In this document: positions 51,031 to 56,222 of the stretch, in pieces | Layout: every line of letters begins with the position of its first letter | How positions within the stretch are numbered: position 1 is the first letter of the stretch | From: Acidobacteriota bacterium | GTDB taxonomy: Bacteria; Acidobacteriota; UBA6911 | DNA length: 64,000 nt | Direction of reading: 5' to 3' | Assembly (NCBI GenBank): GCA_050011535.1 | Contig: JBEKIX010000002.1 | Span: 32,365-96,364, forward strand | Made by a program: the position numbers and the translations under genes | The notes under the pieces: model-generated | Seen by the model: only the letters and a program-made list of their open reading frames with translations | What the model was told of the DNA's origin: nothing | Database searches by the model: none

Positions 51031-51588
51031 TCATGGCTCGGGGCTGTCAGGCGGAGGAGGCGGTGGCGGCAGAACGATCGGCGGTTCCGCGGCTGGCGCG
51101 TGGTGCGAGATCTTGCGCTTTTCGAAGATCGCGACTCCCAGAACTCCGCCCAACATTCCCATCACCGAAAACACCACCAGAAATAGCAAAGCGGAAAAAA
51201 CCATGAGAAGAGCCAAGGCGGTGCCTCCCGTCGGCATGGACGCGATGGCTTCGCGAAACGCGGGCGGAAGATTCGGAATATCGCCGAGGCTTCGTCGCGT
51301 CTCCTCGAGAATGCCCCCGCCGGCGCTGCGCAGAAGGAGCATCGGTATGCTAAACAGAATGTAGACCATTCCTCCGATGCTTCCCGTGAGCAAACCGAGG
51401 CCGGCGCCACTCCCCAGCGTCACCGCTGCCGGAGCGCTCTTTACGTAAAGGTTGGCAGCGAGTATGCCGCCGCCGATCACCCATGCACAGCAGACGCAGT
51501 TGAAGGCCTGGATCAAAGGGAGAGCGGAGAGTATCCCCAGCAGGATGCCGCCGATCAACGCCGGTTTCAGAATTCCATGATCATTCAT
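51031..51588 (-). CDS. hypothetical polytopic membrane protein with poly-Pro C-terminus
   Basis: Four predicted TM helices, ending ...LPPPPPPPDSPEP. The start overlaps the stop of the upstream DUF2085-like gene. Confidence 0.4.
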   Translation of the reverse strand: MNDHGILKPALIGGILLGILSALPLIQAFNCVCCAWVIGGGILAANLYVKSAPAAVTLGSGAGLGLLTGSIGGMVYILFSIPMLLLRSAGGGILEETRRSLGDIPNLPPAFREAIASMPTGGTALALLMVFSALLFLVVFSVMGMLGGVLGVAIFEKRKISHHAPAAEPPIVLPPPPPPPDSPEP

Positions 51589-52103
51589 GATGTGCCTCCC
51601 AGTGCGCCCATGCCTTGATGCTTCCTCCGAGCGTCTTCACTCAACTCGGCCAGTGCCGGCAATACAAGGGATGAGAGCATGGCACCAAAAAGCAAACCCG
51701 TAAGACAGCGACTGACAGGAGTATTGGCCCATATGCCGCTGAACTGCAGCATGGCATCTATCAGCAGAGGCGCAACACCGCAAATCACCCAAAGCCTCCG
51801 CAGGCGTGGCGATTGCAAAATGCTATTCCATGCAAAAGGGACAAGGGAGCCCAGCAACAGGCCAAAATAGATCCCCGAACAGCGATGACATACCGCCCAC
51901 GGATGTCCGAAAATTGCAAAAGACCGTGCCGGGATCTGATGACAGACCGGCGAAAACAGCGCGTACAGCAAGGCTGCGGCCCACTTGTGTCCACTTGCTT
52001 GAAGCAGCGGGGCTGCGAGAAATGCGATGCAGACGCAGATCCAGAGGACTACAGCAGAGGTTCGAATGGATAGCGGAATCGTGCGCGGCCCGGAGTGTTT
52101 CAT
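51585..52103 (-). CDS. DUF2085-like small membrane protein (CxxC-containing)
   Basis: The ATG at 52103 (MKHSGPRTIPLSIRTSAVVLWICV...) is used rather than 52244. Contains VCHQIPARSF...HPWAVCHRCSGIY. Confidence 0.45.
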   Translation of the reverse strand: MKHSGPRTIPLSIRTSAVVLWICVCIAFLAAPLLQASGHKWAAALLYALFSPVCHQIPARSFAIFGHPWAVCHRCSGIYFGLLLGSLVPFAWNSILQSPRLRRLWVICGVAPLLIDAMLQFSGIWANTPVSRCLTGLLFGAMLSSLVLPALAELSEDARRKHQGMGALGGTS

Positions 52104-52358
52104 AGACGAGCCGGCATTATACCCGACTGTACGGCGGGTTTTCAAAAGCGTACCGCATGCAAGAACAATCGTCGTCTCAAGGCAACAAGGCGTCTGAATA
52201 CTATACGTATCATACGAACGGCTTAGGAATAAAAATGATTTCATCTATGAGCCGCCATTTTCCCTTGCTACGACGGCAGCCGTGAGCAGTCAGAATGCGT
52301 TTTTCACGCGATTCCAGCGGGTGAATTAACGCAGCCCGAAGCCTCAGGTTCCACAAGC

Positions 52359-52448
52359 TTTTGTATAAACAACTGGTACTGGCACTAAATCTTGTATAAA
52401 ATCTGGAAATACTACTTGACAGTATATTTTGATTTTATTATACAAAAG
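52359..52448 (+). promoter_or_regulatory. AT-rich promoter (TTGACA-17-TATACA at 52416-52444) flanked by three copies of a TTGTATAAA motif (two direct, one inverted)
   Basis: cTTTTGTATAAacaaCTGG at 52359-52376 and cTTGTATAAAatCTGG at 52391-52406. The inverted copy TTATACAAAAG at 52438-52448 overlaps the -10. RBS GGAGAGG is at 52457-52463. Confidence 0.55.
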
Positions 52449-52467
52449 GGGACATTGGAGAGGTTGG

Positions 52468-53490
52468 ATGCGAGTCGGACTGACATATAACTTGAAGCGT
52501 GGCGAACCTGAAGAGGGGCAGGAACCTCCAAGTAGCAGCCGGGAGGCTCAGGCAGAGTGGGACGAGCCGGAAACCGTCCATGCGGTCATAGATGCCATAC
52601 GGGAACGCCACGAAGTCCTGCCGATTGACGCCGCAGAAGATCCCTACAATGCCTTGCGCGAGGCGCGGCCCGACATTGTATTCAACATGGCGGAAGGAAC
52701 ATTCGGACCCTGCCGTGAAGGTCACATTCCCTCGATTCTCGAGTTTCTGAACATCCCATATACAGCCAGCGACCCATTGACGCTGAGTGTCTGCCTCGAC
52801 AAGTCGCGTGCCAAGGAGATCCTCGCGTATCATGCGCTGCCGACGGCCCGCTTTCGTGTTGTTTCCAGCGTGGAACCTTCGTTCAACACCCTGCACTTTC
52901 CACTTATGGTGAAGCCGCTCTTTGAGGGTTCGAGCATGGGCATCCGGAACGATTCGGTGGTTCAGACACACCAGGAGCTGCACGCCAAGGTGGAGTGGGT
53001 CGTGCGGCGATTCCATCAGCCGGCCATTGTGGAAGAGTTCCTGTCGGGACGAGAGTTCACGGTTGCCATCCTGGGAAACGGCGTGGAAGCCCGGGCACTC
53101 CCGATGGTTGAGGTGCGGTTCGACTCGCTGCCGGCAGGGGTGAATCCCATCTATTCTTATGAAGCCAAGTGGGTATGGGATCAGAGTTCCAAACCGCTTG
53201 AGATTTTTAGCTGTCCGGCGAAGATAGACGAAAAATTGCGAGCGGCGATCGAGCGCATCTGTCTGGAGGCTTATCGAATCCTGAGATGCCGGGACTGGTG
53301 CCGTATCGACGTACGCCTCGATTCAGCGAACCGTCCGCACATTCTTGAATTGAATCCGCTTCCCGGAATTCTTCCGCGGCCGGAGGACAACTCCTGCTTT
53401 CCGAAAGCGGCTCGGGCGGCGGGCATGTCGTACAACCAACTGATCAACGAAGTCCTTGACATTGCTTGCCGGCGGTACGGAATCTCCTGA
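52468..53490 (+). CDS. ATP-grasp ligase of the D-Ala-D-Ala ligase family (copy 1)
   Basis: RVGLTYNLKRG N-terminus. Ddl-like central and C-terminal motifs FPLMVKPLFEGSSMGI, EEFLSGREFTVAILG, RIDVRLDSANRPHILELNPLPG. ATG at 52468. Confidence 0.75.
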   Translation: MRVGLTYNLKRGEPEEGQEPPSSSREAQAEWDEPETVHAVIDAIRERHEVLPIDAAEDPYNALREARPDIVFNMAEGTFGPCREGHIPSILEFLNIPYTASDPLTLSVCLDKSRAKEILAYHALPTARFRVVSSVEPSFNTLHFPLMVKPLFEGSSMGIRNDSVVQTHQELHAKVEWVVRRFHQPAIVEEFLSGREFTVAILGNGVEARALPMVEVRFDSLPAGVNPIYSYEAKWVWDQSSKPLEIFSCPAKIDEKLRAAIERICLEAYRILRCRDWCRIDVRLDSANRPHILELNPLPGILPRPEDNSCFPKAARAAGMSYNQLINEVLDIACRRYGIS

Positions 53491-54536
53491 TGGCACGATC
53501 AGACTGCATTATCCTTTATAACGCCTCTACCGTCAGGCAGATGCCCTCTTCGGAAGAGAAGATCTATCCGGCAAACCTCCTGCGCGAAGAGGCCGGCGCC
53601 ATCGAAGAGAGTTTGCGCGAGCTCGGCTATGCGCCTTTAGTGCTTGCCATCGATTACTTCACGAAAGATCTCGTGGCAACGATTCAGCGCGTCGCTCCCA
53701 AGTTCATCTTCAACTTGTGCGAAGAGCTTCAGGGAGACTGCGAACTGGAGATGTGTATCGCCGGATTATTCGAGCTCATGAACATTCCGTACACGGGCTC
53801 GAGACCGTTGGCGCTCGGTCTGGCGTTGAACAAATTCCGCGTCAAACAGGTGCTGCGTGCCGCCGGCATCCCTGTGCCGCGAGGCTTTCTCTGCCCGATC
53901 GGACAGCAGCTCAAACCCCGGGCTCTGGGCCGTTTTCCTGTTTTCGTGAAGCCGGTCCACGAGGACGCGAGCCTAGGAATCAACGCCCACTCGGTCTGCC
54001 ACGATTTCACACAGCTCGAGAGACAAGTCTCATACATCCATCATGTTTATAACCAGGATGCGCTCATCGAGGAATTTTTGGAGGGCAGGGAGTTCAATGT
54101 TTCCATTCTGGGCGGACAGATCGCTCGGGTGCTCGCAATCTCCGAGATCGATTTCAGCAGCATGCCTGATGGCGAACCAAGAATCGTGAGCTATCGTGCA
54201 AAGTGGGACGAAGAGAGTAGCGTCTTTCAGTGCAGCGTTCCGGTCTGTCCCGCGGAGATCCCTCACCGCCTCGAAAGCCGGATCAAGAGCATCGCGATGC
54301 GTAGCTTCCAATGTGTAGGGTGCCGTGACTACGCCAGGGTGGATATGCGCACGGATTCCCTTGGGAACGCGTGCGTGATGGATGTCAATCCTAATCCGGA
54401 TCTTTCTCCGCACGCGGGATTCTTCCGCGCGGCGCGGGCGGCGGGCATGACTTACACTGACATGGTCTCGCACATCACTCAATCCGCATTGGAGCGAGTG
54501 ACAAAGGCTCCCTCGACGGCATATGTCTTCTCCTGA
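53490..54536 (+). CDS. ATP-grasp ligase of the D-Ala-D-Ala ligase family (copy 2)
   Basis: ATGA overlap with copy 1. Motifs FPVFVKPVHEDASLGI, EEFLEGREFNVSILG, RVDMRTDSLGNACVMDVNPNP. Confidence 0.75.
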   Translation: MARSDCIILYNASTVRQMPSSEEKIYPANLLREEAGAIEESLRELGYAPLVLAIDYFTKDLVATIQRVAPKFIFNLCEELQGDCELEMCIAGLFELMNIPYTGSRPLALGLALNKFRVKQVLRAAGIPVPRGFLCPIGQQLKPRALGRFPVFVKPVHEDASLGINAHSVCHDFTQLERQVSYIHHVYNQDALIEEFLEGREFNVSILGGQIARVLAISEIDFSSMPDGEPRIVSYRAKWDEESSVFQCSVPVCPAEIPHRLESRIKSIAMRSFQCVGCRDYARVDMRTDSLGNACVMDVNPNPDLSPHAGFFRAARAAGMTYTDMVSHITQSALERVTKAPSTAYVFS

Positions 54537-55023
54537 CTCTCATATACACTCGATTCGCAATCTGGAACCGCGCGATCGCGCCGCGATTGCGAACATCGTG
54601 CAAAGTGTCGGCAATTTCAATCAGGCAGAGATCGAGTGCGCTCTCGAACTGGTCGACGCATGCCTGAACGATACCAATCAGAAGGACTATCGGATCGTCG
54701 TGGATGAGATCGCTGGAGAAGTCTGTGGCTATGCATGCTGGGGACTGGCTCCGCTTACCAAAGGAACATTTGATCTTTATTGGATCGCCGCGCATCCCGG
54801 AGCTCAGGCACGCGGCGTCGGACGCGCCTTGATGGCGCACGTTGAAAACCAGGTGCGCGCGGAGAATGGCAGGCTCCTCATAATTGAAACTTCCTCCAAG
54901 GAATCATACGGGAATACCGTGGGATTCTATCGCCGCTTGGGATATGAAGAGGCGTCGCGAATACGGGATTTCTACGACGCGGGTGACGATAAGCTGATAT
55001 TTGTAAGGAGATTTTCCCGGTAA
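54523..55023 (+). CDS. GNAT-family N-acetyltransferase
   Basis: Acetyl-CoA-binding motif A region HPGAQARGVGRALMAHVE. 166 aa. Overlaps the copy-2 3' end by 14 nt. Confidence 0.75.
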   Translation: MSSPDSHIHSIRNLEPRDRAAIANIVQSVGNFNQAEIECALELVDACLNDTNQKDYRIVVDEIAGEVCGYACWGLAPLTKGTFDLYWIAAHPGAQARGVGRALMAHVENQVRAENGRLLIIETSSKESYGNTVGFYRRLGYEEASRIRDFYDAGDDKLIFVRRFSR

Positions 55024-55038
55024 GGAGAATTGTTGTCC

Positions 55039-56124
55039 ATGAAACAGTGGATGCTTGACCTGCGCAACAGCGTCACCAATGGGGAAACGGTCTGCGAGGA
55101 CTTCGACGCCGAAAAGGATGAAATCGACGTCGTCCGCGATGTCTATCCAATGCGGATTCCCCGTTATTACTACAACCTGATCCGCGAGAAGGGGGATCCC
55201 ATCTGGATGCAGTCGGTCCCCTCGATCCAGGAGCTCCAGGACATGGACGCTCCCGAGGATCCGCTTCATGAGGATGAAGACAGCCCGGTCACCCGGCTTA
55301 CCCACCGGTATCCAGACCGCGTCCTTCTGCTGATCACAGACCGCTGCCCCATGTATTGCCGGTTCTGCACACGCAAACGAATGGTGGGACGAACGAGCGA
55401 TATTACGGAGCGCACCATCGCAATCGGTATCGAGTATATCCGCGCTCACAAGGAAATCCGCGATGTCCTGCTCTCGGGCGGCGACCCGCTGATGGTCAGC
55501 GACGAAAAGCTCGAGAGCATTATATCGAGGCTGCGTGAAATCCCTCACGTCGAGATCGTACGCCTGGGAACCAGATTCCCTTGCGTTCTCCCGAGCCGGA
55601 TTACGGACGAGCTTTGCAACATGCTCAAGAAGTACCATCCGATATTCGTCAATACACACTTCAACCATCCGCGCGAACTCACTCCGGAAGCCAGAGGCGC
55701 GTGTGAGCGTCTGGCAAACGCGGGCATACCCGTCGGTTGTCAGACCGTGCTGATGAAGGGTGTCAACGACGATCCTGAGGTGATCAAGGAGCTGATGCAC
55801 AAGCTCGTGATGGCCCGCGTGCGGCCGTATTACCTCTACCAGACCGATCTCACGCGCGGCACCAACCATTTCCGCACACGTGTTGAGATGGGGCTGCAGA
55901 TCATCCAGGCACTCCGAGGACACACGAGCGGATTTGCAGTCCCCCAATTCGTCATCGATGCTCCCGGCGGCGGCGGCAAGATTCCCTTGATGCCCGAGTA
56001 TGTTGTGGGCTTCGACGAAAAGGAAATTGTGCTCAGAAACTTCGAAGGCAGACTCTTCCGTTACCCGCAACCCACGGAAGAGTATGTTCGCGATGTGCGC
56101 GAAATCGAAGTGATCAACTTCTAG
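55039..56124 (+). CDS. lysine 2,3-aminomutase family radical-SAM enzyme, short form (KamA/EpmB-like)
   Basis: CPMYCRFCTRKRMVG (CxxxCxxC) plus KamA-family blocks LLSGGDPLM, VRLGTRFP, FVNTHFNHPREL, GIPVGCQTVLMKGVNDD, RPYYLYQTDL. AAGGAG lies 11 nt upstream. Confidence 0.85.
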   Translation: MKQWMLDLRNSVTNGETVCEDFDAEKDEIDVVRDVYPMRIPRYYYNLIREKGDPIWMQSVPSIQELQDMDAPEDPLHEDEDSPVTRLTHRYPDRVLLLITDRCPMYCRFCTRKRMVGRTSDITERTIAIGIEYIRAHKEIRDVLLSGGDPLMVSDEKLESIISRLREIPHVEIVRLGTRFPCVLPSRITDELCNMLKKYHPIFVNTHFNHPRELTPEARGACERLANAGIPVGCQTVLMKGVNDDPEVIKELMHKLVMARVRPYYLYQTDLTRGTNHFRTRVEMGLQIIQALRGHTSGFAVPQFVIDAPGGGGKIPLMPEYVVGFDEKEIVLRNFEGRLFRYPQPTEEYVRDVREIEVINF

Positions 56125-56134
56125 CGATTGCAGG

Positions 56135-56222
56135 TTGACGATTGACGATTGAAAGCCGGGCAATGCTCCCCGCCCCTGAGCCCGCCAGCTTTCAATCGTC
56201 AATCTGAGATTGTCTGTTTTTT
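56135..56222 (+). terminator. 17-bp perfect-stem hairpin (GATTGACGATTGAAAGC ... GCTTTCAATCGTCAATC, 31-nt loop) containing tandem TTGACGA repeats, with a T6 tract 12 nt downstream
   Basis: Arms lie at 56140-56156 and 56188-56204. TTTTTT is at 56217-56222. Confidence 0.45.

Follow-up and report, generated by a model that had tools for sequence, protein, structure and literature searches.

A probable NrdR operator upstream of an operon for ATP-grasp ligases, a GNAT acetyltransferase and a KamA-like aminomutase in Acidobacteriota

Segment 52351-52397 of the acidobacterial DNA analysed here (the window, a stretch of 64,000 nucleotides) is very likely an operator for NrdR, located upstream of a sigma-70-type promoter that would drive a four-gene operon. 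The operator is of a known kind; what is new is its target. The known NrdR regulon consists of ribonucleotide reductase (RNR) genes, while the genes found here encode two ATP-grasp ligases, a GNAT acetyltransferase and a KamA-like protein. The first-pass annotation of this region had described three short boxes around the promoter and called for a repressor acting in trans or a factor that responds to osmotic conditions or stress. It is very probable that the two direct boxes are sites for a repressor encoded elsewhere; the factor implied is NrdR, a dATP/ATP-sensing repressor with a Zn-ribbon and an ATP-cone, rather than an osmotic or stress-responsive one.

Published NrdR operators comprise two 16-bp boxes in which C4, A6, A8, T9, T11 and G13 are conserved, separated by a linker of 15-16 bp (PMC13584703), and the box consensus has been given as acaCwAtATaTwGtg (Rodionov and Gelfand 2005, as quoted in PMC4009431). 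The published linker tolerance is 14-17 bp, or one helical turn more. In the window, box 1 (CCACAAGCTTTTGTAT, 52351-52366) carried five of the six key positions (C4, A6, T9, T11 and G13, with C at A8) and box 2 (GCACTAAATCTTGTAT, 52382-52397) carried all six; taken together, the two partially palindromic boxes matched the published operator at 11 of 12 key positions. The linker between them (52367-52381) is 15 bp long, and its length is conserved but not its sequence. Both boxes are dyad-symmetric with centres 31 bp apart, and A+T between C4 and G13 was 75% in box 1 and 87.5% in box 2, the published minimum being 63% (PMC13584703). We identified the pair as an NrdR operator because the invariant columns C..A....T..G with central AT, the dyad symmetry and the 31-bp centre distance fit the published one. 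In previous binding work (PMC13584703), C4 and G13, 8 bp apart, were critical for NrdR, mutation of A8 was tolerated in binding assays, G or C at position 6 of both boxes weakened binding, a single box was not bound, and NrdR proteins of different phyla bound one another's boxes.

The repeats that had drawn attention to the region were largely confirmed by a repeat finder and by reading of 51900-52900, although the unit behind them is a different one. Exact TTGTATAAA was present in two copies on the plus strand, at 52361-52369 and 52392-52400. The inverted third copy, TTGTATAAT (52437-52445, minus strand), had been counted as a further TTGTATAAA box and turned out to match it at only eight of nine positions. 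The 11-nt perfect inverted repeat is real; its downstream arm, TTATACAAAAG, lies at 52438-52448 as first placed, and its upstream arm, CTTTTGTATAA, lies at 52358-52368, not 52359-52369. As regards a possible random occurrence of TTGTATAAA, exact copies in the 64-kb window (2 vs. 0.05 expected; a count of 2 was reached in 0 of 100 shuffles) clearly exceeded chance, while copies with one mismatch (5 vs. 3.1 expected) did not. When the AT-rich intergenic region (364 bp) was shuffled with dinucleotides preserved, perfect inverted repeats of 11 nt or more appeared in 4 of 500 shuffles and direct repeats of 9 nt or more in 86 of 500. By the sequence of the window alone, the inverted repeat is thus less expected than the direct repeats; comparison with orthologues reverses this ranking. 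The real motif unit is not TTGTATAAA but the 16-bp NrdR box, with TTGTAT representing positions 11-16 and the remainder of TTGTATAAA representing three flanking bases. Neither the proposed 'N-CTGG' extension of the motif nor the TATAAA tails of the window boxes were conserved among the orthologues.

The promoter was found as annotated, with a -35 hexamer TTGACA (52416-52421, plus strand), a 17-nt spacer and a -10 hexamer TATACA (52439-52444, plus strand). The operator ends 18 bp before TTGACA and is therefore adjacent to the promoter with no overlap with either hexamer. In 37 aligned orthologues TTGAC was invariant and the last A nearly so. The -10 element lacks the usual final T, and for this reason it was not reported by a simple promoter scan; the corresponding hexamer in orthologues is TATACC, TATATC, TATATG or TAAAAA. 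An A/T-rich stretch with a conserved GAAATA core (52398-52415, plus strand), located between box 2 and the -35 hexamer, resembles an UP element and may act as one. A Shine-Dalgarno-like GGAGAGG (52457-52463, plus strand) precedes the ATG at 52468, with GAGAGGG or GAAAGGT in its place in orthologues. The position of the transcription start is a predicted one.

Judged by its homologues, the window belongs to Acidobacteriota and probably to Terriglobia. Conservation across Acidobacteriota was analyzed in orthologous loci gathered from species-representative genomes, metagenomes and co-specific contigs, which yielded 39 distinct acidobacterial promoters. The 130 bp preceding the operon were strikingly conserved in these 39 sequences, whose first protein is 62-83% identical to that of the window, and synteny was kept (priA, a CDF transporter, a 185-aa gene, DUF2085, then the operon). 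Both boxes were present in every promoter (39/39). In box 1, C4, A6 and T11 were found in 39/39, G13 in 38/39, T9 in 36/39 and A8 in 31/39; in box 2, C4, A8, T9, T11 and G13 were all found in 39/39, and position 6 varied (A in 11, T in 13, G in 11 and C in 4). The linker measured 15 bp in 35 of the 39 promoters, 14 bp in two and 16 bp in two, and the start-to-start distance of the boxes, 31 bp in the first 18 sequences, was 30-32 bp over all 39. Box flanks and linker sequence varied freely. Most orthologue boxes had at least 62.5% A+T between C4 and G13. The distance from box 2 to the -35 hexamer was 17-18 bp in 35/39, 27 bp in L018 and 39 bp in L015. The overall consensus reads ACACAAGATTTTGTGA-N15-GCCCAnTATCTTGTGG-N17/18-TTGACA-N17-TATAC...GAAAGGT...ATG, in which ACACAAGATTTTGTGA agrees at 13/16 positions with acaCwAtATaTwGtg(t) and at 12/16 with the published synthetic box ACACAACATCTAGTGG. 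This pattern points to strong purifying selection on the NrdR-critical positions and on the linker length across Acidobacteriota.

The published NrdR regular expression was too loose to be used alone, as it gave approximately 30-40 background matches in 1.4 Mb, including conserved matches inside the kamA coding region of Nitrospinota that were removed by a stricter score. The strict rule called for at least 11/12 key positions, C4 and G13 in both boxes, a linker of 14-17 bp and A+T of at least 62.5%, and was applied to 1.45 Mb. It matched every acidobacterial promoter, two that score 10/12 doing so only through identical or same-species copies. Beyond these promoters, it returned eight Nitrospinota loci and one other match. 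A position weight matrix of the box found no further strong site outside the operon promoter in the window and 17 acidobacterial loci (251 kb), so a large local regulon is not indicated.

In Nitrospinota, the pair TCACAATATATTGTGG-N16-ACTCAAAATGCTGTGT was found at eight loci, four of them distinct (L020, L022, L033 and L037; also L116-L118 and L121), approximately 70-117 bp upstream of a kamA-like gene. Here the cluster begins with the kamA-like gene, followed by a single ATP-grasp gene and then HU. The promoter elements follow in the order TTGACA / box 1 / T / TATATT, and the start region is covered by box 2; given this predicted promoter, the layout is the classical placement for NrdR as a repressor. 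A fifth Nitrospinota sequence (L041) kept box 1, with box 2 degenerate. The Nitrospinota loci thus resemble the window in gene family cluster and in type of operator, but they differ in having kamA first, one ATP-grasp gene, box 1 filling the -35/-10 spacer and a linker of 16 bp, whereas in the window the operator lies upstream of the -35 hexamer and has a 15-bp linker. Since two phyla that differ in gene order and in operator position both carry the operator, which is hard to explain otherwise, NrdR control of this gene family is credible. No conserved box pair was found near the cluster in Bacteroidota, Ignavibacteriota, Kryptonia, KSB1 or Planctomycetes.

The third, inverted copy had been given a role of its own, in that three boxes would bracket the promoter and occlude RNA polymerase; such a model could have the copy at the -10 hexamer cooperate with the upstream boxes by looping. 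The downstream arm (52438-52448) does overlap the -10 hexamer (52439-52444), the 11-nt repeat is improbable by chance in this region, as the 4/500 shuffles indicate, and the co-specific contigs L082-L084 carry it unchanged. Nevertheless, we consider this arrangement very improbable. The arm, with ACAAAAG in the window, lies outside the NrdR operator and is not conserved past the -10 hexamer: it is down to 7 nt in L001, a relative with 83% identity, and to at most 5 nt in other orthologues, distant ones having TATACCAAG or TAAAAAAT there, so that the bracketing and the occlusion through the -10 arm received no comparative support. On its own strand, the inverted copy shows T9, T11 and G13 of an NrdR box but not C4, A6 or A8, which leaves the right half-site alone, and NrdR fails to bind one box, let alone half of one (PMC13584703). 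Its centre is 59 bp from that of box 2 and 90 bp from that of box 1, distances that fit neither of the published spacing classes (31-32 bp between centres, or one helical turn more). Further, two independent constraints, a TATACAA -10 region and a TTGTATA box end, already account for seven of the 11 complementary bases, and the other four are species-specific. The third 'box' is therefore probably the -10 element itself, and its likeness to the boxes a lineage-specific by-product.

Two other explanations address the conserved palindromes of 14-16 bp themselves. A different lineage-specific dimeric or tetrameric factor might bind them and activate a promoter with a weak -10 element, candidates being a class-I-type activator near -61.5 and -92.5 or an amino-acid sensor of the Lrp/AsnC type with approximately 31-bp phasing. 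Such a factor would suit boxes upstream of the -35 hexamer, a -10 element without its final T in almost all orthologues and an operon that handles an amino acid; a start approximately 7 nt past the -10 element would put the box centres at classical class-I positions, and in L015 the -35 hexamer is approximately 21-22 bp farther from box 2, which corresponds to roughly two helical turns. We nonetheless regard it as unlikely: the invariant positions are precisely the six of NrdR and the linker is the NrdR linker, neither TGTGA-N6-TCACA nor TTGAT-N4-ATCAA symmetry is present, L018 differs by approximately 9 bp in its distance to the -35 hexamer, so strict helical phasing with the promoter is not maintained, and Nitrospinota carry the same type of box in a pure repressor position. 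The notion that the conserved block is a structured RNA, a leader or an antisense transcript with the palindromes as hairpins, is hardly tenable. A 5-bp hairpin can be drawn in box 1, and the outer half-sites of 37 sequences show 88% complementarity, but this complementarity arises from each arm matching one consensus, and the boxes lie upstream of the invariant -35/-10 pair. There was no Rfam match in 51500-53000 at E up to 1. In the 37-sequence alignment, local hairpins were paired in 71% of cells with covariation below that of shuffled controls; the long-range pairing was not clearly above shuffles (53/500 for cells paired, 69/500 for covariation), and measures of pair count and pair type were marginal (21/500 each).

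Known sites of other kinds were also compared with the boxes and set aside. For Lrp-type 31-bp phasing, the NrdR definition fitted better. Of a class I CRP/FNR site, a TGTG half alone is present, the dyad CAC(A/T)A-N4-T(T/A)GTG being of the opposite polarity. In a sigma-54 reading (GG-N10-GC) based on TGGCAC at 52380-52385, the following TTG is one base too far, GT stands in place of GC, and the GG is not conserved in orthologues. IHF and DnaA-box readings had the wrong spacing or symmetry, or matching bases that were not conserved.

The NrdR reading was then set against characterized operators. The operators of nrdHIEF, nrdDG and nrdAB in E. coli and of nrdRJ and nrdAB in S. coelicolor have, like the window, paired 16-bp boxes with the six key positions, a 15-bp linker, an AT-rich core and a promoter-proximal placement. 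In contrast to the window, where the operator lies upstream of the -35 hexamer and the genes are not RNR genes, these operators cover the -35 hexamer, the -10 hexamer or the start. In nrdHEF of S. pneumoniae (PMC12051234), by comparison, the -35 and -10 elements are downstream of box 2, as in the window, and the ATG lies 68 bp past box 2, compared to 70 bp here; its linkers of 24-26 bp and its RNR operon are unlike the window. It thereby provides a precedent, at a genuine RNR operon, for boxes wholly upstream of the -35 hexamer. The one experimentally tested non-RNR target of NrdR is topA of P. aeruginosa, which, as in the window, has a box ahead of a non-RNR gene; there, a single box is present and NrdR acts positively, whereas the window has a full canonical pair that is conserved across the phylum (PMC4409342).

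In structural terms, NrdR loaded with ATP is a dodecamer unable to bind DNA, while dATP together with ATP gives an NrdR tetramer that occupies both boxes and makes the DNA turn through approximately 180 degrees, which blocks or restricts RNA polymerase (PMC9110341). Applied to the window, rising dATP would bring an NrdR tetramer loaded with dATP and ATP onto both boxes, on one face of the helix, with the DNA sharply bent, and transcription from the adjacent promoter would fall; with ATP alone, NrdR would form dodecamers unable to bind DNA and the operon would be derepressed. Because 18 bp separate the operator from the -35 hexamer, direct occlusion of the hexamers is not expected. The effect would instead probably run through interference with upstream RNA polymerase contacts and a distorted promoter geometry, the GAAATA stretch lying between box 2 and the -35 hexamer. 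From our analysis, repression appears roughly twice as probable as activation, positive control being possible since NrdR acts positively on P. aeruginosa topA via a single box. Several points weigh against the proposal. The regulated genes are non-RNR, while NrdR has been described as RNR-specific; an operator clear of the -35 and -10 hexamers does not allow simple occlusion, and we infer the direction of control; position 8 of box 1 in the window is C; and position 6 of box 2 is variable in orthologues, including the G and C that weaken binding.

With regard to the regulator itself, neither nrdR nor RNR genes were found in the 64-kb window or in the loci around the gene cluster, and the window contained no RNR motif. 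In line with the first-pass annotation, no regulator gene is adjacent to the operon, the neighbours being DUF2085 and another membrane protein. A search with a consensus-like NrdR query returned NrdR-annotated proteins, those with organism names belonging to Terriglobia, Vicinamibacterales, Luteitalea and 'Acidobacteriota bacterium', and including P0166 (Terriglobia), P0240 (Acidobacteriota) and P0207 (Luteitalea). The Zn-ribbon cysteines, RRRR, D15 and R17 were present in the four NrdR sequences read, D15 and R17 having been reported to contact C4 and G13 (PMC13584703). At the acidobacterial nrdR loci (L165-L168), hsp20 and lon come after nrdR, and an ECF sigma/anti-sigma pair lies divergently to it (two lineages). 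As there were no NrdR boxes upstream of nrdR in L165-L168, autoregulation of the kind known for Streptomyces nrdRJ is not expected there. A consensus NrdJ query for acidobacterial RNR genes matched only unnamed fragments or fragments from other phyla.

The first gene of the operon (52468-53490, plus strand) encodes a Ddl-like ATP-grasp ligase of 340 aa (Pfam PF07478, 5e-38) whose closest solved structures are Ddl, and the second (53490-54536, plus strand) a further Ddl-like ATP-grasp ligase of 348 aa; both score under every NCBIfam Ddl cut-off. They are followed by a GNAT acetyltransferase of 166 aa (54523-55023, plus strand) and a KamA-family radical-SAM 2,3-aminomutase of 361 aa (55039-56124, plus strand; PF04055 and PF12544). 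The latter reached 492.7 bits against TIGR03820 AblA, just under the 525.4 cut-off, and its nearest solved relative is lysine 2,3-aminomutase from Clostridium (2A5H, E = 1.7e-123). A long inverted repeat with a T-run, read directly from the sequence (56139-56222, plus strand), is a probable terminator that would end the four-gene operon before pyrG, with kdsA and kdsD beyond; a simple terminator scan missed it because of its large loop. The repeat begins 15 nt past the stop of the KamA-like gene and consists of GATTGACGATTGAAAGC...GCTTTCAATCGTCAATC, then TGTTTTTTC. Read-through to pyrG was considered as a reason for NrdR control, and this long hairpin with its T-run after the last gene makes it unlikely.

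Full NrdR box pairs thus accompany the cluster in both Acidobacteriota and Nitrospinota, two phyla that differ in its gene order and in where the operator is placed. We propose tentatively, as a possibility rather than a probability, that the cluster of a KamA-like gene with one or two Ddl-like ATP-grasp genes (and GNAT in some lineages) is an old, conserved, non-RNR target of NrdR in at least two phyla. If so, the need for its product would be tied to deoxynucleotide supply or DNA replication; what that product is can be a matter of speculation, a small molecule containing a beta-amino acid or a protein modification being our guesses. An anonymous repeat would in this way become a named regulatory link, with the prediction that NrdR is the binder, that dATP plus ATP versus ATP alone is the switch and that C4 and G13 of each box are the decisive bases. 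The NrdR regulon would extend beyond ribonucleotide reductase to a widespread operon of uncharacterized function, for which coupling of expression to deoxynucleotide status would be a first physiological clue. Our literature search linked NrdR neither with an aminomutase operon nor with Acidobacteriota. Previous genome-wide surveys of NrdR boxes covered only the upstream regions of annotated RNR operons (PMC12051234) and hence would have missed targets of this kind by design.

Several further features were observed around the cluster. The operon, which combines a KamA-like aminomutase and a RimI-like GNAT with one or two ligases of the Ddl-like ATP-grasp type, has orthologues in at least seven phyla and is uncharacterized; its enzyme types are as reminiscent of protein modification (EpmB, RimK, RimI) as of the synthesis of N-acetyl-beta-lysine, an osmolyte. 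Upstream and divergent from the operon in the window lie the DUF2085 gene and a gene for a 185-aa membrane protein with no Pfam or NCBIfam family. A near-consensus promoter, TTGAAA-18-TATAAT (11/12; 52101-52145, minus strand), faces the DUF2085 gene, whose likely ATG (52103-52101) is approximately 13 nt past the -10 element, suggesting a leaderless mRNA or one with a very short leader. The TTCATA...CATTATA arrangement recurs in L001, L002, L004 and L085-L089. Approximately 18-20 nt upstream of NrdR box 1, a GC-rich palindrome or hairpin, GGGT-N6-ACCC, was seen in L001, L002, L003, L004, L007, L085-L089, L093 and L101 (for example TGGGTGAAATCACCCA, TGGGTCATTCAACCCA and GGGGAGAAACACCCC), and some of its changes look compensatory; in the window it is degenerate (approximately 52322-52341).

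In Nitrospinota, a large imperfect hairpin of short tandem units lies between kamA and the ATP-grasp gene, and L041 has a GNAT gene upstream. A different element was found in Bacteroidota and Ignavibacteriota (L019, L021, L025, L026, L029, L031, L042, L046, L056, L070, L114 and L125), where a conserved leader of the form GAAAGG-YAWCCAAA-(5-9 nt loop)-TTTGGTACTC-YYCTGA-ATG stands directly upstream of the ATP-grasp ATG. It matched no Rfam family. Its hairpin (CCAAA/UUUGG plus GGUA/UACU) is located between the Shine-Dalgarno-like GAAAGG and the start codon, and may bring the Shine-Dalgarno sequence near the AUG or act as a translational switch.
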